DNA of 39,731 bases from a virus (IMGVR_UViG_2718218171_000002:1-39731), one strand, 5' to 3'. Positions 1,057 through 8,444 are shown, counted from the first letter of the stretch. Program-made: numbers and translations. The notes: generated by a model from the sequence alone, not told the origin.

Positions 1057-1316
1057 TACCGCACCTCCAGTCTCCATACCGCCTGACCAATCCGGCTGGC
1101 ATAGGTATCTTTGGATACTGTTCCGTCTTTAGCCATCTCCATAAGAATTTTGCGCAAATCTGCCGAACGCCATTCTTCATCAGGAAATTCCTTCTCCATT
1201 GCCAACCGCAGATTCCAGGTTGCCATCCTGAATGGATATTCCCCGCCGAGAGCTTTATCTTGCAGGGCAGCCCGGGAACGCATCACCTGCAAAACCTTCT
1301 CTTTTACATCCATCAT
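1056..1316 (-). CDS. hypothetical protein (86 aa)
   Basis: ORF with AGGAGG RBS; start overlaps stop of upstream gene. Confidence 0.5.
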   Translation of the reverse strand: MMDVKEKVLQVMRSRAALQDKALGGEYPFRMATWNLRLAMEKEFPDEEWRSADLRKILMEMAKDGTVSKDTYASRIGQAVWRLEVR

Positions 1317-2053
1317 TTCACCTCCTGCGGAGGTTCTGGTAGCGGCATCCAGTGTGTGACATTGCTAATCAGGTCATATTCATTAGTTTGAGGATGGTTG
1401 CCGCTATCATCTCCATATTTAAGACTCTCCATAAAACCATAATGCTTATTCCCATTAACTCTCACAAAGCCGTAATAAGCAGGTATAACGCCGATCTCAC
1501 ACGTAACCAGTAAAGGAAAACTAGTTCTCCAATTTAGCTCGCCAATTACAGGCATTCGCTCACTACAGCTTATCCAACCATCCGGAGTTACCGGAGAGTT
1601 GCCACCGGGAATATTTTCCGGAATATTTTGTTGTGCGTTTTGTGGTTGTTCGGATTTACCCTGAAGCATGGCGGCGCGGCAGGCGTTCCAGCCAGCTGTT
1701 CGCCCAAGCGCGTAAACTTCAGATGGCTCAAGATAATCAATGTCATGCCCATCCTCATCGTCGTTCTCAGGTAATGCAGCAGGTACTACCGGTACTGGCG
1801 GAGCGGCGTAGACTTCAATAATCCCATTATCAATAGGCCATTCCCCATCCTTGATGTAGTCACTTGTGCCGTCAACTTGCTGTTCTGCAATGTGGAATGC
1901 GCCAATAGGCTCTGCTTCCAGCGATGCCAGTGCAATACGCAGGGCAGCCAGGATATTCCCCTGGTAATCATCAAGCCCGAAAGGAAGCTCATCACGAACG
2001 CTTTCATAATCGTTGATAGCCTGCTGCAGCCATTCTCTTGTGATAGTGCTCAT
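1313..2053 (-). CDS. DUF551-like prophage protein
   Basis: 246 aa; C-terminal WMPLPEPP motif typical of DUF551; ATGA start/stop overlap with upstream gene. Confidence 0.55.
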   Translation of the reverse strand: MSTITREWLQQAINDYESVRDELPFGLDDYQGNILAALRIALASLEAEPIGAFHIAEQQVDGTSDYIKDGEWPIDNGIIEVYAAPPVPVVPAALPENDDEDGHDIDYLEPSEVYALGRTAGWNACRAAMLQGKSEQPQNAQQNIPENIPGGNSPVTPDGWISCSERMPVIGELNWRTSFPLLVTCEIGVIPAYYGFVRVNGNKHYGFMESLKYGDDSGNHPQTNEYDLISNVTHWMPLPEPPQEVK

Positions 2054-2724
2054 GATGCCTCTCCTTTACATGCTTCGGTGACGTTTATTCCAGCGTTGTG
2101 CAGTGCCTCAAGAACCTGATGCTGCCTGTAAACCATTTCAGTGTGGTAAGGCTCGTCAAAATCGACGCGATGCAACATGCTATAGCATTGCGGAAGCACA
2201 ACCTCCCGCAACTCCAGCTCAGCAATGCGCTTCTCTGCGGCTTCCAGCTTCTCGCGCATATCATCAACGTACTCGACCAGAGATCCGCCAGCAGGAATTT
2301 CGCACTCCTCGACCAGTTGGAAGTAGATATCAGCTGCGGCCCGTGTGCTGCTATGCCTAGCGTCGCCCATCTCACCTTCACGAAGAGCATCGCGTTCGGC
2401 GGTAAGATTGGCTATTTTGCTGTCTTTGCCTTCCAGCTCAACGCGCAGCTTCCCTACCGTTAGCGCAATTTCCTCGTTCTCCTGGTCGCGGGATTTGATG
2501 TATTGCTGGTTCCTTTCCCGTTCATCCAGTAGTGCCAAAGCAACCTTTGGATTAAAGGCAGCAATAAATTCAGCGTTGTTTTTCAGAACGTGTTGCGTAA
2601 TCGCCTGACTACTTAGTCGGACCTCATAACCACGTGCGCCACGGTGTGGTTTATATGAGTCCCAGTCTCCCCACGTTGCCTTCTCTGCCGCCTCACGCAG
2701 TGCCTGATAGTCAATCTTGCTCAC
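2050..2724 (-). CDS. Ead/Ea22-like protein
   Basis: 224 aa; N-terminus [16 protein letters not shown] and coiled-coil resemble Ea22-like prophage proteins; GTG start with AGGAGG RBS. Confidence 0.55.
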   Translation of the reverse strand: MSKIDYQALREAAEKATWGDWDSYKPHRGARGYEVRLSSQAITQHVLKNNAEFIAAFNPKVALALLDERERNQQYIKSRDQENEEIALTVGKLRVELEGKDSKIANLTAERDALREGEMGDARHSSTRAAADIYFQLVEECEIPAGGSLVEYVDDMREKLEAAEKRIAELELREVVLPQCYSMLHRVDFDEPYHTEMVYRQHQVLEALHNAGINVTEACKGEAS

Positions 2725-3260
2725 TGGTTTCCTCCTTTGCGAAGCTGGTCGGCGAACAAACGTACACCAGACGCTTCACTGCGTAGAAACTTAACGGCAT
2801 AATCAAAACCACCTCGTTCTGCGTCGTCTGCTCCGTTGTCGAGGTTATCTGCGTACATCTCTACCCCCTGCGCCCGTACTTCAGCCAGGAAAGCATCGGT
2901 GGCTTGGGTTTCTTCAAGCGCTCGCTTAACCTTTTCCTCAGCTTCGCAAATTGACTGAACCCAGAAGTCAGCGTGAGGTGGCCTGCCTGCCTTTTTTATC
3001 TCCGCACGAAGCTCAATTTGCTGAGTTACCGCAGATTTCAGCCTCGCATTCTCCGCCGCCAGCGCCTCGCACTTGGCTTCAAGGTTATCAATCGTGATTC
3101 CGGAAGAACGACACTCACGAAACGCCGTTTCTAGTTTTGATTCAAGTTCACCGAACTTACGCACCAGATATTCAGCGTTTGTTTCGTTAACCTTTAAATC
3201 ACTTGGGATGCATTTACCTTTCAGAAATCCATCCATCTCAATTAGTGACATTTGTTTCAT
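2721..3260 (-). CDS. hypothetical coiled-coil protein (179 aa)
   Basis: ORF in operon context; ATGA overlap with upstream small ORF. Confidence 0.5.
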
Positions 3261-3437: not shown

Positions 3438-3752
3438 TTAATTTATTCGTATGCCTGCTCTTTCTTCATCGAGTTTTTTTAGCTTGTATCGCATAGCTCT
3501 TACTGAATAAATTGAGCGGCAGGTTGCAATTGCTATTTCTTCTGCGGAGAACTTACCGAAAAGTGATACTTCGGCTCTTGTCCAGCGTCTTCCACGAAGT
3601 CGGCTAACAATGTCAGCGCCAATCCTTGTTGCTTTCGCCATAACTGCTTTTTCAGTCCTTTCCAGTTTTTCAGCGATAACTTCAACTGGCATTGTCGCCG
3701 CTACTTCGCGCAAGAAATCGACTTCCCATTTCTCCCATGGAGTCTTTTTCAT
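3438..3752 (-). CDS. hypothetical protein with two internal W-x-x-x-E-V repeats (possible DNA-binding)
   Basis: 104 aa; repeated WEKWEVDFL and WTRAEVSLF segments. Confidence 0.45.
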
Positions 3753-3763
3753 AGGCGATACCG

Positions 3764-4246
3764 TTATTTGATAAGAAGTGAAGGTTTCCCAACTTTGAGT
3801 TGAGCACCGGGGATATTTATTCCTGCTTTTAGTTGGTGTTTGATTGCCAGTTTGTCGGCTTTAATTGTCGTTTCGAACTCAACGTATTCAGGAGGAAGGG
3901 CGCTTGAGTCGATGATTTCTACAGTTTCTGACGGTTTGCGGATTGTTACCTGGTGAATACCTGCTCGAATCTTTTTCTTGCCAACCATTTCAAGCGATGA
4001 CGCTATATACGCCATAATGCTGTCAATCTTATTTTGAATTACTACGGCTCGCTCATTTAGTGACTTTGCCTCTTCCTTGAGGCGTTCAGCATAACCAGAT
4101 TCATTTTTAATAATGGCGAGAAGTTGCTCTATTTTATCGGTAAATTCTCCTTCCATGCCTTCTATTGTGTCAGCAATCATCTCTGGTTCTAAATCTGAAT
4201 CCATCAATTTTGCGTATTCATTGGCAATTTCATACAGTTTGCTCAC
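3764..4246 (-). CDS. Gp157-family (siphovirus Gp157-like) protein
   Basis: Size and sequence resemble the Gp157 family often encoded next to recT; start assigned to GTG 6 nt after a GGAGG RBS. Confidence 0.5.
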   Translation of the reverse strand: MSKLYEIANEYAKLMDSDLEPEMIADTIEGMEGEFTDKIEQLLAIIKNESGYAERLKEEAKSLNERAVVIQNKIDSIMAYIASSLEMVGKKKIRAGIHQVTIRKPSETVEIIDSSALPPEYVEFETTIKADKLAIKHQLKAGINIPGAQLKVGKPSLLIK

Positions 4247-5132
4247 TGGCAACCTCCAGTTTCGCTTTGCATTCTATGTAAATGGCTTGTACGTTCTGCT
4301 GCAATTTCATTCCAGATGTCAGGCGATATGCTTCTGCAAAATATCGCTTCAAATCGTCCATGTTTTCTGCCTGAGCCATTTCATCGCAAAGAAGTTGTGC
4401 TTTATCCATTATTTCCTGCTGGCGTTTCCGTTCATCTTCGCGGATATCTTCCTCTGATTTGTGCGGCATAACTGGTTCCTGATGCATACCTTCATCTTCG
4501 TTAAGAAGGTGAATGGCATTATCCAGTCGCTGGGCTTTAGGCCAGTATTTGCTGGCGCGTTTAACTATTGTTTTACGCGCCATCTCTTCCCAGAATGTTT
4601 TCCACGGTCCATTCTTTGCCTTGCTCGTTGCTTCCACAGCTTTAATTTCTGCCAGACTCATTTCTTCAGTCAGGTAGTCACCATCTGCTGTTTTAACCGT
4701 GCAATAACCTCCAACAATAGAGCCTCGCTCACCAAATGCGTTGTATTTGTGGGTTGGTGCTGAATCAAGGCCATTTGATTCATAGGTGTCGTTTGAGTAC
4801 ACCAGTTTGCATTGCCCCCACTTAATTGATCCTGTCGATTGCGCAAGATGAAGTAATCCCATGTAACTGATATCAAGGCACACCATGCCGTCGCGAGGAA
4901 CCAGATAAGCCAGTTTGCTGGCCGGGTTTAAGGTGATGCCGATCGCCGCAACATTGATGATGGCGTTCTGTGCGCTGGTTGGATTTGCCAGTGCTGTTTT
5001 AGCCAGGTAATCGTTTTTCTGGAAATACTGAATTGCAAACTGGCTTTCCTTAGCCCATGTCACCGTCTGTTCAGTCAATGCTCCGCAGAATAACTGCTCT
5101 TGCTGTTTAACGAATTCAACGATATTGCTCAT
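4230..5132 (-). CDS. recT: RecT-family single-strand annealing recombinase
   Basis: 300 aa; conserved NGPWKTFWEEMARKTIVKRASKYWP block matches the RecT family. Confidence 0.8.
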   Translation of the reverse strand: MSNIVEFVKQQEQLFCGALTEQTVTWAKESQFAIQYFQKNDYLAKTALANPTSAQNAIINVAAIGITLNPASKLAYLVPRDGMVCLDISYMGLLHLAQSTGSIKWGQCKLVYSNDTYESNGLDSAPTHKYNAFGERGSIVGGYCTVKTADGDYLTEEMSLAEIKAVEATSKAKNGPWKTFWEEMARKTIVKRASKYWPKAQRLDNAIHLLNEDEGMHQEPVMPHKSEEDIREDERKRQQEIMDKAQLLCDEMAQAENMDDLKRYFAEAYRLTSGMKLQQNVQAIYIECKAKLEVASEQTV

Positions 5133-5440
5133 GCAGCTTCTCCATAAATATGTCTGCGTTTGAATATTGCGAAGGCATATTCAGCCTTAACTCTTTCGGT
5201 TATTGCATCCCAGAACCATTCAGCGGCTTTTTCCTGATAGTTACAGTCATCATCTTCCAGCCAGTCGATAGCGTCCTTAGTGTGTTCATCTGGTTTATAT
5301 GAGCGAAGCATTTCGCTTATTGGGTCGCAACGTTTGCAGAGGCGATCAACTTCACTGTTGATTCGTTCGTAATCATCATCGGTAAAACTTGCGATGATTT
5401 GCGATATTTCACGCTTATCATTCAGAGTCAGAATCATCAT
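5129..5440 (-). CDS. hypothetical acidic protein (103 aa) in the gam-like position
   Basis: Translationally coupled (ATGA) immediately upstream of recT; acidic composition. Confidence 0.5.
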   Translation of the reverse strand: MMILTLNDKREISQIIASFTDDDYERINSEVDRLCKRCDPISEMLRSYKPDEHTKDAIDWLEDDDCNYQEKAAEWFWDAITERVKAEYAFAIFKRRHIYGEAA

Positions 5441-5521
5441 CTTTCTCCTGTTCTTTGTGCTGATTGAGCATTTTGTTCATCTGACGAATGAATTCTTCGT
5501 CTGACCAGTTATCTGTAAAAC

Positions 5522-5674
5522 TCATTTCCTGCGATACCACGGAATGTTGATCGCTGATTTCATCGCTTTATTTGCTTCAAGCCACATTTTGGAATCACCA
5601 ATAAATCTGGCTATTACTGCTTTGTTTTGTGCTGCACGAAGCATCTGGTGATTGATGGCTATTTCATTGCGCAT
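5522..5674 (-). CDS. small hypothetical protein (50 aa)
   Basis: ATG preceded by GGAGG RBS; stop overlaps another short ORF start; below ORF-track cutoff. Confidence 0.3.
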   Translation of the reverse strand: MRNEIAINHQMLRAAQNKAVIARFIGDSKMWLEANKAMKSAINIPWYRRK

Positions 5675-5876
5675 AACGCCTCCAGTTGTTTCTTTGCTGC
5701 TCTGATTAATTGTTTAACTCGGCGTGATAATTCAGATTCGTGCGGGTAGAAAGCGGACATGACGCCGCTACCCGCGAGCTGAAAGTGCATCATGGGTAAC
5801 TCCTTATATTTGATTGCATAACGAAAACGCCTCGAGTGAAGCGTTATTGGTATGCGGTAAAGCCGCGCTTGGCGGC

Positions 5877-6293
5877 TTATTTGAAGACTTCTATGAAATC
5901 AAGAACTGATGATATTTCGTGGTTGAACGATTTTCTTTTGTATCTTTCTATCGCAGAGTCTACCTGGTGTTTATAGTCATCGTCGTTTGAGTATTTAACG
6001 AAGCATTCTATTGTCTCAGGCGTTACAGCTATAAGGCTCCACCAACCTTCATCAGATTGATATTCAAATCCCATGCTTTCAAGCCATCCAGCATATTTCC
6101 CTCCAGCATCTTGCCAGTGTGTCTTTTCTGCAAGGAAGCTGTTAACCGTCATATGTGCATCAAGGCATTTATCCAACTGTTTACCATTAAGTAGCCATGC
6201 GCTGACAGTTGCACATCCCAAATCAACTGATTGAGTAGAGATATTGAATTGGTCGTAATTATCTGGATTAACCAGAATATCTGTAATTTCCAT
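5877..6293 (-). CDS. hypothetical acidic protein (138 aa)
   Basis: Start taken at MEITDIL (ATG 6293..6291) preceded by GGAGG RBS; upstream terminator hairpin. Confidence 0.5.
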   Translation of the reverse strand: MEITDILVNPDNYDQFNISTQSVDLGCATVSAWLLNGKQLDKCLDAHMTVNSFLAEKTHWQDAGGKYAGWLESMGFEYQSDEGWWSLIAVTPETIECFVKYSNDDDYKHQVDSAIERYKRKSFNHEISSVLDFIEVFK

Positions 6294-6303
6294 AATTCCT
6301 CCG

Positions 6304-6332
6304 TCAAAAAAATTGCCCTCACACTGGAGGGC
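6304..6332 (-). terminator. intrinsic terminator inside early-left operon
   Basis: Stem GCCCUC/GAGGGC followed by U7 on the minus-strand transcript. Confidence 0.5.
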
Positions 6333-6428
6333 AAAGAAGATTTCCAATAATCAGAACAAGTCGGCTCCTGTTTAGTTACGAGCGACATTGCTCACATAGC
6401 AGACTCGTAAATCTGCTATAGGTGCTTA

Positions 6429-6584
6429 TTCGCATCGCGTGACAACATCAAATTTTTCGAGATTACTTTGTCGCAACAATCCTTCTTCTACGCGGTCAGC
6501 TTTTCTATAATTATCAAATTCGAAATGTTTAATTACTTCTTTTGTTTCTCGCTCTATAACTTCAACAATGTATTTCTTATTCAT
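6429..6584 (-). CDS. small hypothetical protein (51 aa)
   Basis: ATG overlaps stop of upstream gene (ATGA); below ORF-track cutoff. Confidence 0.3.
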
Positions 6585-6880
6585 CATTCTTCCCCAAGAG
6601 CTTTTCTGATTGCTGCAAGACCTTTATTAACAGCTCCATACCATTCTGGATATGTTGTCGTTGTTCTATTTTTGGTTTGCTTAAGTAATAACTGAAGTGC
6701 TTCGAGAAGGTCAGGTGCTGCCGCTATTAGATTGGCATCTTCAATGCATTGAACTTCCTCACAGATTGCAATATACGAACGCCAGCCTGCGCCATTTTCA
6801 AGTGAGTCTGCCTGGATTATTTTAATCTCGTCGCCATCCATCATTATTTCCCACTTGCCTTCAGTACCTTTAAATTCCAT
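6584..6880 (-). CDS. hypothetical acidic protein (98 aa)
   Basis: AGAGGA RBS; contains LIAAAPDLLEAL motif seen in small prophage proteins. Confidence 0.5.
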   Translation of the reverse strand: MEFKGTEGKWEIMMDGDEIKIIQADSLENGAGWRSYIAICEEVQCIEDANLIAAAPDLLEALQLLLKQTKNRTTTTYPEWYGAVNKGLAAIRKALGEE

Positions 6881-6899
6881 GTTATCCTCTGTTGTTTAT

Positions 6900-6935
6900 G
6901 CCAAAAATAAAGGCCACCATCAGGCAGCCTTGTTG
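6900..6935 (-). terminator. intrinsic terminator (minus strand)
   Basis: 7-bp stem with two G-U pairs, UGAU loop, then UUUAUUUUU; sequence-related to the hairpin at 515-540. Confidence 0.45.
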
Positions 6936-7171
6936 TAAATGTTGCAGGTATCAAGTAAGTAATTAGATGGAGCGCCATAAATTATGAATTCATCGTTTGT
7001 CGGGTCCATCTCCATCTCTTGGCCTATTGCCATTCTTGCGTCAGTGTCGTCAGCGGCGAAGCATAAAACAGCCCACGCCCCCATTGTTTTAAAAAGAACT
7101 GCAATTGGCTGTGGTTTTACTGAATTTGCGTTAGCGCGAAAATCATAAATCGCACTTTCATGAAATTCCAT
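6920..7171 (-). CDS. hypothetical acidic protein (83 aa), first gene after N
   Basis: GAGGTG RBS; position corresponds to ral-like genes in lambda but no clear similarity. Confidence 0.5.
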   Translation of the reverse strand: MEFHESAIYDFRANANSVKPQPIAVLFKTMGAWAVLCFAADDTDARMAIGQEMEMDPTNDEFIIYGAPSNYLLDTCNIYNKAA

Positions 7172-7179
7172 ATATCACC

Positions 7180-7479
7180 TCAAATAAGTGGTTTGCTGCC
7201 TAATTTCATTTTCTGGCGACCAACACAAGTCACACCCATTTCACTGCGTGGCTTGCGGTAGTAAATACGATTCTGTTTACGCTCGACTTCTTCTGCCTTC
7301 TTGCAGCGAAGGCTTCCGAGTGATGCTGCTTTATCTGCTCTGACGCAACCAGAGAGCTTTAGCGCAATTTTTCGTGCCAGTCGCTGCTCTTGCATTGCCT
7401 GTTCACGTTGAGCCTGTCTGCGTGCTCTGCGGCGATTTCTGGCGTTATCGTCAGCCAGATATGTAATGACTACTGTCAT
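7180..7479 (-). CDS. N-like transcription antiterminator
   Basis: 99 aa with N-terminal arginine-rich motif (NARNRRRARRQAQREQ); first gene of the leftward operon downstream of nutL; GGAGG RBS. Confidence 0.6.
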   Translation of the reverse strand: MTVVITYLADDNARNRRRARRQAQREQAMQEQRLARKIALKLSGCVRADKAASLGSLRCKKAEEVERKQNRIYYRKPRSEMGVTCVGRQKMKLGSKPLI

Positions 7480-7586
7480 GTTGACCTCCGATGATTGACT
7501 TTGGCGGTGACGCGCCGGGTGCTTATCTTCCGGTTGCCGTCGTGCAGCTGCACTTCACGTCACCCCAAAGCCAACTACTCTTTGGT

Positions 7587-7628
7587 TCCCGCATTTCGGC
7601 GGGACAATCCCATCAATGTTAAAGAGCA
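7587..7628 (-). promoter_or_regulatory. nutL (boxA TGCTCTTTAACA plus boxB hairpin)
   Basis: Minus-strand reading gives a boxA-like sequence followed by a stem-loop; identical 42-bp copy in opposite orientation at 8717-8758. Confidence 0.6.
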
Positions 7629-7664
7629 TGCCAATCTGTTCCGTTTGGCTACCAGCGTCCTGCT

Positions 7665-7710
7665 GATGGCTTAAATTTAAGATCTCTTTAATTAATGGTC
7701 AAGAGTATTT
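7665..7710 (-). promoter_or_regulatory. PL promoter / OL operator region
   Basis: ATTTAAGATCTCTTTAAT (7675-7692) matches the P22-type operator half-site pattern; TTGACC -35 on the minus strand about 17 bp upstream. Confidence 0.5.
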
Positions 7711-7767
7711 TTGAAGAAAACTTAAATTTTCTTTCGTAACTTAAGTTTGGCTTTGATTTTTAAAGGA

Positions 7768-7796
7768 AATAAAAAAAAGGGGCGAATGCCCCCTTA
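7768..7796 (-). terminator. intrinsic terminator at end of repressor gene
   Basis: Stem GGGGC/GCCCC followed by U8 on the minus-strand transcript, overlapping the c2 stop codon. Confidence 0.6.
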
Positions 7797-8444
7797 TGGA
7801 AGGTTTGCTAGTTTTGCATCGACAACTACGCCGATGATTTTGCAGTTTCCGTTGATCTCGATCATCGGATATTGTGGGTTAAGTGGTTTTAGAAACTTCC
7901 TGCCTGCATCAATAACTAACTTCTTGAAAGTTGCCTCGTTTTCTCCTTCGAGCTTTGCAACTACCAGTTTCCCGTTACGCGGCTCTACTTCAGGATCGAC
8001 GAGTATTATCATTCCTTCAGGGATACTGAGACCGGCCGGAGCCGTCATTGAGTCTCCCTTCACGTCCAACCAAAACGAATCTTCTGAACAGTCTACGGTT
8101 GTATCGTACCAGTTATCTATTGCACGCTTATGATATGGTTCTACAGCTTCCATCCAGCATCCTGCGCTCACCCAGCTAATCAGAGGGTATGACCCTCTTG
8201 GATCATGCCTACTGTGATAGGCAATGTTTGAAAGACTTTCCTCTCCTTTCATCAGATAGTCAGGGGAACACTTCAACGCATTAGCCAGGGCGAGAAGATT
8301 CTCTCCATTTGGCTCTGTCTCAGAGCGTTCCCACTGAGATATGGCAACATTAGACACGCCGACCATCTTTCCAAGTGCGGCCTGCCTGATCTTAAGTTCT
8401 TTTCTCCGAGCGCGAATGCGCTCTCCCATCAATTGAGTTTTCAT
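7794..8444 (-). CDS. c2: P22 C2-type prophage repressor (LexA-like, S24 peptidase fold)
   Basis: 216 aa, near-identical over its length to the P22 C2 repressor as remembered. Confidence 0.9.
   Translation of the reverse strand: MKTQLMGERIRARRKELKIRQAALGKMVGVSNVAISQWERSETEPNGENLLALANALKCSPDYLMKGEESLSNIAYHSRHDPRGSYPLISWVSAGCWMEAVEPYHKRAIDNWYDTTVDCSEDSFWLDVKGDSMTAPAGLSIPEGMIILVDPEVEPRNGKLVVAKLEGENEATFKKLVIDAGRKFLKPLNPQYPMIEINGNCKIIGVVVDAKLANLP

Follow-up and report, generated by a model that had tools for sequence, protein, structure and literature searches.

Lambdoid phages carry several types of anti-RecBCD protein in their Rec modules, and a survey of 325 such modules lists Gam, GamL, Abc2 and MuGam (Zheng et al. 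2025, PMC12315714). The Gam protein of lambda, an acidic dimer, imitates the end of a DNA molecule and occludes the entry site of RecBCD, and its long N-terminal helix plugs the single-stranded DNA channel of RecB (PMC5218532). For GamL, which is divergent in sequence, a predicted fold resembling that of Gam has been reported (Zheng et al. 2025, PMC12315714). Here we examine a stretch of viral DNA of 39.7 kb (IMGVR_UViG_2718218171_000002:1-39731; hereafter the window, with coordinates counted from its first letter), in which eight minus-strand open reading frames (ORFs) lie between an N-like antiterminator gene (7180-7479) and recT (4230-5132). The ORF that adjoins recT, o103, encodes an acidic protein that is most likely a third sequence type of Gam-fold RecBCD inhibitor, after Gam and GamL. 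The family of o103 seems not to have been recognised in the survey of Rec modules (Zheng et al. 2025, PMC12315714).

The region itself is an ordinary, highly shuffled early-left (pL, delayed-early, N-dependent) block of a P22-like Escherichia coli phage. Our reading of the whole, which we hold to be reasonably probable, is that of a P22-like pL block made up of cassettes, cIII and Kil, and o103 as a diverged Gam-fold RecBCD inhibitor. Gene order provides the starting point. The order in the window (N - o83 - o98, o53 - o138 - cIII - kil - o35 - o103 - recT - Gp157/MuGam-like - Abc1-like) parallels that of lambda (N - ral - ea10 - cIII - kil - gam - bet - exo), with cIII-kil-o35-o103-recT in the window corresponding to cIII-kil-gam-bet in lambda. 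Two related phages fill the same position with proteins of known type. Phage Dewey has the order cIII - kil - (o98-like) - lambda-type Gam - RecT - MuGam-like, where RecT is 85.7% identical to that of the window and the MuGam-like protein, annotated 'Mu Gam-like end protection protein', is 95% identical. Klebsiella phage KO-TP1 has kil - GamL - RecT - MuGam-like, in which GamL is 78% identical to phi80 GamL and the other two proteins show 66% and 62% identity, respectively. Because Dewey and KO-TP1 carry gam or gamL upstream of a homologous RecT, a single slot of one module can be filled by Gam, GamL or o103, and this is the strongest contextual evidence that we have. The initial annotation of this DNA had argued from position, by comparison with lambda and P22, that the block may encode host-takeover and anti-defence functions; the argument is borne out by kil, by cIII and by a gene in the gam slot with a Gam-like predicted fold.

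Homologues of o103 keep the same company over a wide range of divergence. In 19 of 19 phage records (38-99% identity) the homologue abuts a recombinase gene: phages of E. coli, Cronobacter and Erwinia have recT there, and Salmonella SEN22 has a RecE-like gene. Three more distant homologues, from prophages or metagenomes (34%, 56% and, in Dryocola, 60% identity), lie directly upstream of a PF03837 RecT, and the third gene in these loci encodes Gp157 or YqaJ. The family is small: a profile search gave 65 clusters, and 1.84 billion proteins contained 68 of its representatives at 50% identity. The gene is nevertheless carried by prophages of E. coli and Salmonella on well over 1,000 contigs, and by phages such as HK140 (99% identical), mEpX1, Kapi1 and Gally. 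In the window the stop codon of o103 overlaps the start codon of recT (ATGA).

Such linkage and translational coupling to RecT, maintained over 34-99% identity, can also be read in another way, namely that o103 is a cofactor of the annealing protein (comparable to P22 Arf in its service to Erf, or a protein that loads RecT or adapts it) and that its Gam shape reflects ancestry without a common target. The rest of the module lends this explanation some weight, since it already includes a MuGam-like protein of the kind counted as anti-RecBCD in HK140, whose module has been described as RecT + MuGam (Zheng et al. 2025, PMC12315714), and a second inhibitor is not obviously needed; this point also tells against our own reading. 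So does the kink in the predicted N-terminal helix of o103, unlike the channel-plugging helix of Gam. In SEN22, however, the neighbour of the o103 homologue is a RecE-like gene, and the module has been classed among those without an annealing protein; the sister modules fill the slot with true gam or gamL while keeping the MuGam-like gene. Because gam and gamL coexist with the MuGam-like gene, the role of the slot looks like that of Gam, and the MuGam-like protein does not appear to make Gam redundant. On balance we find a cofactor role unlikely.

Directed profile comparisons point from o103 to Gam. A profile built from 44 o103-family sequences matched GamS (PDB 2uuz, 5mbv) at E 0.15 among 177,635 PDB sequences, aligning o103 residues 30-88 with GamS residues 33-92; per sequence, this value corresponds to p of about 1e-6, and gene position had fixed the hypothesis beforehand. 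The o103 hidden Markov model (HMM) gave four Gam proteins 14-18 bits and 16 control proteins 5 bits or less. With hhalign, the o103 profile aligned to a small Gam profile with a score of 27.0 over 56 columns in default mode, and in relaxed mode the alignment ran colinearly from o103 6-94 to Gam 48-138. Column-shuffled Gam profiles scored a mean of 10.7 (standard deviation 2.2, maximum 18.7), and 0 of the 200 reached 27.0; reversed Gam scored 10.5, and the accepted Gam/GamL pair 31.2. Pairwise BLASTP between o103 and the Dewey Gam aligned 23 residues at 48% identity (E 9.5e-5), with a DDDxx[YF]QE[KR]xAE motif common to both proteins at the centre. The structure predicted for o103 is a GamS-like helical fold, and its helices, placed on the register of the alignment, follow what we take, from our own reading of the Gam sequence, to be the order of the GamS helices.

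Several other results weigh against a relation to Gam. At a threshold as loose as E <= 10, the Pfam model for Gam (PF06064) found neither o103 nor the 42 members of its family that were scanned, and these 42 members match no Pfam domain at all. Among PHROGs, o103 is best placed in phrog_3486, 'unknown function', and lambda Gam goes to phrog_259. The hhalign probability for o103 and Gam is 44%, below the usual thresholds for a family, and is 1% when a shallower profile is compared with a single Gam sequence. Matches of the o103 profile to uS15, alphaRep designs and saposin-like repeats are equally weak. Foldseek of the o103 model against BFVD gave nothing significant and did not return Gam. Lastly, the helix at the N-terminus is broken in the model at residues 17-19 (into 5-16 and 20-34), and therefore the details of binding, or even the target, could differ from those of Gam.

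Since small helical bundles match many things, the resemblance to Gam could be coincidental and o103 could be an accessory gene that happens to lie beside recT. The unspecific profile matches and the Foldseek result agree with this explanation; the shuffled and reversed controls and the alternation with gam and gamL in one slot do not, and we think it quite improbable. A different departure from our reading keeps the ancestry and alters the action: phrog_3486 may be a third Gam-fold lineage directed at another nuclease or at a defence that guards RecBCD, or one that hands DNA ends over to RecT. This idea draws on the constant association with recT or recE, the coexistence with the MuGam-like gene and the kinked N-terminal helix. 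A changed role of this kind seems to us improbable.

A closer relation to phi80 GamL was considered and rejected, with hhalign probabilities of 1.7% and 3.0% and HMM scores of 5.0 bits or less. At rank 5 of the Foldseek search stood a weak match (TM score 0.44) to A0A3G3BYC6, an uncharacterised protein of 104 amino acids (aa) from Edwardsiella phage Edno5, which may be a distant member of the o103 family. Edno5 has been cited as carrying RecT + RecE without an anti-RecBCD gene (Zheng et al. 2025, PMC12315714).

If o103 is a Gam-fold inhibitor, it would be made together with RecT through translational coupling and would form an acidic (24 D+E versus 15 K+R), helical and probably dimeric mimic of a DNA end. 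It would bind the DNA-entry site of RecBCD and so shield the substrates of RecT, namely linear, rolling-circle and recombination intermediates. That o103 binds RecBCD, inhibits it and dimerises we infer by analogy with Gam. A phage with an anti-RecBCD function of its own is expected to lack Chi sites (Zheng et al. 2025, PMC12315714), and Chi (GCTGGTGG) is found on neither strand of the 39.7 kb. This is consistent with an inhibitor-encoding phage but does not discriminate, because about 1.2 sites (1.17 +/- 1.08) are expected by chance.

The genes that follow recT belong to the same Rec module. The Gp157/MuGam-like gene is kept beside RecT whether the slot holds Gam, GamL or o103 (Dewey, locus L015; KO-TP1, locus L020), which calls into question its role, assumed in recent surveys, as the anti-RecBCD function of the module. 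Its start is ambiguous between a TTG at 4252 (162 aa) and an internal ATG (146 aa, as annotated in Dewey), and Gp157 homologues in two related loci (L006 and L009) match PF05565. The next gene is Abc1-like, on the basis of its position: the Gally gene that matches it in place after Gp157 is annotated 'Anti-RecBCD protein 1, similar to P22gp35_Abc1'. No obvious homologue of Abc2 adjoins it in the window. In one wild E. coli strain, P22 abc1 (orf116) was reported to bring about cell death that depended on a P4 prophage (Silas et al., bioRxiv 10.1101/2023.04.06.535777).

The remainder of the block is mostly ordinary lambdoid early-left content, that is cIII, Kil and four shuffled hypothetical genes. 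The block and the N-like gene lie downstream of the cI repressor gene (7794-8444). The genes, from the N-like gene onwards, are:

7180-7479, minus strand: N-like antiterminator, which bounds the block upstream; phrog_271 'anti-termination protein N-like', E 4.8e-37; isoelectric point (pI) 11
6920-7171, minus strand: o83 (83 aa); phrog_2471 over its full length, E 1.2e-60
6584-6880, minus strand: o98 (98 aa); phrog_1273, E 1.8e-32
6426-6587, minus strand: o53 (53 aa, or 52 aa from the second Met); phrog_6949, E 5.6e-39
5877-6293, minus strand: o138 (138 aa, ATG start); narrow orphan family, acidic
5659-5793, minus strand: cIII (44 aa); PF08134, phrog_550
5522-5674, minus strand: Kil (50 aa); PF06301, phrog_2055
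5418-5525, minus strand: o35 (35 aa); phrog_17766 and phrog_2123
5129-5440, minus strand: o103 (102/103 aa); phrog_3486, acidic protein with five predicted helices
4230-5132, minus strand: RecT single-strand annealing protein, downstream boundary of the block; PF03837, E 2.5e-33
3764-4252, minus strand: Sipho_Gp157 / 'Mu Gam-like' protein; phrog_253, E 6e-53
3438-3752, minus strand: Abc1-like protein, assigned by position

The initial annotation had listed ORFs of 83, 98, 51, 138, about 44-50 and 103 aa here, and all are present on the minus strand in the place given; the 51-aa ORF should be one of 53 or 52 aa, and the 35-aa ORF had been overlooked. The description of most of the proteins as acidic fits five of them, o83 (pI 4.24), o98 (4.56), o138 (4.51), o35 (4.27) and o103 (4.64), and fails for o53, which is near neutral (5.83), and for the 44-aa and 50-aa proteins, which are basic (9.9 and 11.0). 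Tight packing with ATGA overlaps was correctly noted: three junctions have four-nucleotide ATGA overlaps (o98/o53, kil/o35 and o103/recT), two have longer overlaps (16 nucleotides for cIII/kil, 23 for o35/o103), and the gaps among the remaining genes are 8, 39, 78 and 83 nucleotides. The proteins had also been described as without recognisable domains. That is wrong for cIII (PF08134) and Kil (PF06301); the other six ORFs all fall in PHROG families annotated 'unknown function'. The accompanying statement that nothing in the sequence assigns a function was too pessimistic for three of the eight ORFs, namely cIII, Kil and, as a candidate, o103.

The PHROG matches of these six ORFs extend over essentially their whole length, and the protein collection contains an identical sequence for each ORF, within 90%-identity clusters of 100 to 1,003 members labelled 'hypothetical protein'. 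These full-length matches and large clusters indicate real conserved genes, not chance ORFs; o35 we rate as a possible gene. Scans of the six with NCBIfam and Pfam gave no significant match, and PADLOC defence-system models gave 0 families at E <= 1. Searches of PDB sequences with single sequences of o138, o103, o98 and o83 returned nothing below E 0.2, and an Rfam scan of 4800-8000 returned one match, at chance level. The N-like protein matches Pfam N_peptide at E 8.4e-4, under the curated cut-off.

Two of the short ORFs are readily named. The 44-aa ORF is cIII, with 104.7 bits to PF08134 (cut-off 25; E 2e-30) across profile positions 1-37 in full, and its homologue in Kapi1 is annotated CIII. 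The 50-aa ORF is Kil, with 72.6 bits to PF06301 Lambda_Kil (cut-off 27.6; E 1.7e-20), a match to phrog_2055 (E 3e-35) and the PGAP label 'host cell division inhibitory peptide Kil'. cIII is an FtsH-inhibiting lysogeny factor and Kil an inhibitor of host cell division. Between Kil and o103, o35 is a possible gene, very acidic and in the position of P22 arf. It matches phrog_17766 (E 5e-16) and, over its first 20 residues, phrog_2123 (E 3.5e-10); a conserved version of its first 26 residues follows kil in HK97, HK022 and Sf6, and it is found on >1,000 contigs. Its identification as Arf is not supported: phrog_2445, 'Erf recombination cofactor Arf', scored only E 0.062 and BLASTP E 0.1, and the Pfam Phage_Arf model, which finds BTP1 Arf at E 7.9e-34 as a control, gave no match. 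A 69-aa E. coli protein (P0123), apparently the product of a prophage deletion, joins the N-terminus of o35 in frame to the C-terminal half of o103.

The promoter-proximal half of the block consists of exchangeable N-dependent cassettes, o83, o98 + o53, and o138. The window is Lederbergvirus-like, and positions 5000-7500 are matched piecewise, at about 97-98%, by Kapi1, by Gally and by several mEp and HK phages; as much as 80% of 5129-7171 is covered by no phage record. Among 5,426 complete E. coli genomes, 2,283 (42%) contain parts of the latter interval, and only 1 has at least 80% of it in one place. Other E. coli prophages that share o98 through recT have ral in place of o83; in NZ_CP180393, for example, ral occupies the o83 slot, just upstream of an o98 homologue. 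We regard the cassettes as exchangeable because the pieces are widespread, the full combination is found in 1 genome and ral is swapped for o83. The cassette proteins are shuffled among lambdoid and even unrelated phages.

Terminator-like hairpins with T-runs are frequent here, with seven observed in 5000-7800 versus 2.6 +/- 1.6 in shuffled sequences. They sit in the three gaps that separate o83, o98-o53, o138 and cIII, and so coincide with the mosaic units; a further one follows cI:

7776-7795, minus strand: terminator-like hairpin and T-run, after cI
6910-6931, minus strand: terminator-like hairpin and T-run at the o83/o98 junction (9-bp stem, 5 GC pairs)
6313-6334, minus strand: terminator-like hairpin and T7 run, just upstream of the o138 ribosome-binding site
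5826-5845, minus strand: terminator-like hairpin between o138 and cIII

The N antiterminator makes downstream genes readable past terminators. Hairpins between the cassettes therefore imply N-dependent read-through, in which an N-modified RNA polymerase would pass each of them. Promoter-like sites are not enriched (6 versus 5.5 expected), and there is therefore no evidence that the cassettes are self-transcribed morons.

Shuffling of this kind is what arms-race genes would show, and acidic cassette proteins (o83, o98, o53 and o138) might be DNA mimics or other anti-restriction or anti-defence proteins. The pI of 4.2-4.6 in o83, o98 and o138, the location of o83 in the ral slot and the presence of the o98 and o138 families in unrelated phages would all suit such a role, which nevertheless finds no match in Pfam, NCBIfam or PADLOC models of defence and anti-defence, and the model of o138 resembles no known fold. 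A screen by Silas et al. (bioRxiv 10.1101/2023.04.06.535777), in which wild E. coli was made to express 200 accessory genes, bears on two of the genes. Single-residue variants of both proteins were included, UDP0060 for o83 and UDP0149 for o53 (Silas et al., Supplementary File 3). Neither UDP is mentioned in the text, and both are missing from the table of 'all AGs that produced phenotypes' (bioRxiv 10.1101/2023.04.06.535777), which covers counter-defence and lethality. This counts weakly against an anti-defence or toxicity role of o83 and o53 under the conditions of the screen, and it is also a point against our reading. For the cassette proteins as a group we rate anti-defence functions as rather unlikely. 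The earlier suggestion that the block encodes anti-restriction, anti-RecBCD or toxicity factors thus survives in o103, as an anti-RecBCD candidate, and in kil, and loses ground for o83 and o53. Of the sensitive profile and structure searches that had been proposed as a check, directed profile comparisons pick Gam for o103; no specific function emerged for o98 or o138.

The cassette proteins differ in how far they can be placed. o83 belongs to a cluster of 429 members, all 'hypothetical'. It has no BLASTP match to lambda Ral at E <= 10 and a different PHROG, with only the slot in common, and it has no similarity to lambda ea10, orf28 or orf60a/61/63. o98 is assigned to the family of P22 orf78 and ST104 ORF18 (PF27050, phrog_1273), the latter annotated 'similar to P22 orf78': a protein from a Salmonella prophage, for which a match to PF27050 Phage_P22_Y8K6 was precomputed, is 47.5% identical to it (E 1.7e-25). 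Its membership of PF27050 is indirect, as our local Pfam scan scored nothing even for an annotated member of the family. The N-terminal half of o98 is also found in large virulent Klebsiella, Cronobacter and Salmonella phages. We do not claim that o98 carries an Ead/Ea22 N-terminal domain, a lead suggested by its LIAAAPDLLEAL motif, as BLASTP against three Ea22-like proteins gave nothing significant. Elsewhere in the window, at 1313-3260 on the minus strand, three ORFs (246, 224 and 179 aa) resemble early-left proteins of the Ead/Ea22 type, and the equivalent position in related loci holds PF13935 Ead_Ea22. The 224-aa protein has an NAEFIAAFNP...LALLDE motif that recalls the LIAAAPDLLEAL motif of o98, with no significant relation by BLASTP.

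For o138, a TTG-extended reading of 156 aa is unlikely. The hairpin at 6313-6334 would lie within the extension, and we therefore place the start at the ATG at 6293; the PHROG match fits the 138-aa form as well. Relatives of o138 at 65% identity are encoded at 3501-3917 in two metagenome contigs (L024 and L025), which have long runs of small hypothetical ORFs and no lambdoid marker genes; one neighbour has a faint match to a Macro domain. o138 therefore moves between very different phage backgrounds.

If o103 inhibits RecBCD, the classification of Rec modules and the correlation of Chi density with absence of an inhibitor (Zheng et al. 2025) would change, and recombineering would gain a new compact inhibitor to pair with RecT. 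It would also be a further example of the Gam fold persisting with sequence similarity almost lost. Were its action to have changed instead, modules listed as 'no anti-RecBCD' or 'MuGam only' (the HK140 type and possibly Edno5) would need to be reclassified. The negative results, with o83 and o53 already screened and o138 without a fold match, narrow future work.

The cassette genes and o35 can be set beside known systems. o83 occupies the operon slot of lambda and P22 Ral in prophages with the same downstream genes; Ral gave phenotypes in the screen of Silas et al., whereas the o83 homologue is absent from the phenotype list. o98 has in common with the P22 orf78/ST104 ORF18 family both the pattern FKGT.G.W ... 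LIAAAPDLLEALQ ... ALG(EE) and the ral-to-cIII interval, unlike the arrangement in Dewey, where the family member lies between kil and gam. Like P22 Arf (PF17585, phrog_2445), o35 is tiny, very acidic, located between kil and the gene for an annealing protein, and endowed with a D-x-x-D-[DE]-E-F-I stretch near its N-terminus; the C-terminal halves are unrelated, and the partner is RecT where that of Arf is Erf.

For o103, the comparison is with the two Gam types. Lambda Gam (PF06064, phrog_259; PDB 2UUZ, 5MBV) and o103 share about 16% identity, and o103 differs in the interruption of its predicted N-terminal helix and in having no long (GamL-isoform) N-terminal extension. GamL of phi80/Lula (phrog_1050) lies, as o103 does, directly upstream of a RecT-type gene (in phi80 and KO-TP1). 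The gamL gene of phi80 is annotated as toxic without an upstream modifier (agt/Mog), and no such partner is seen in the window. By analogy, GamL offers a precedent for a gam slot that may hold unrelated-looking proteins of the Gam fold, among which we would place o103.

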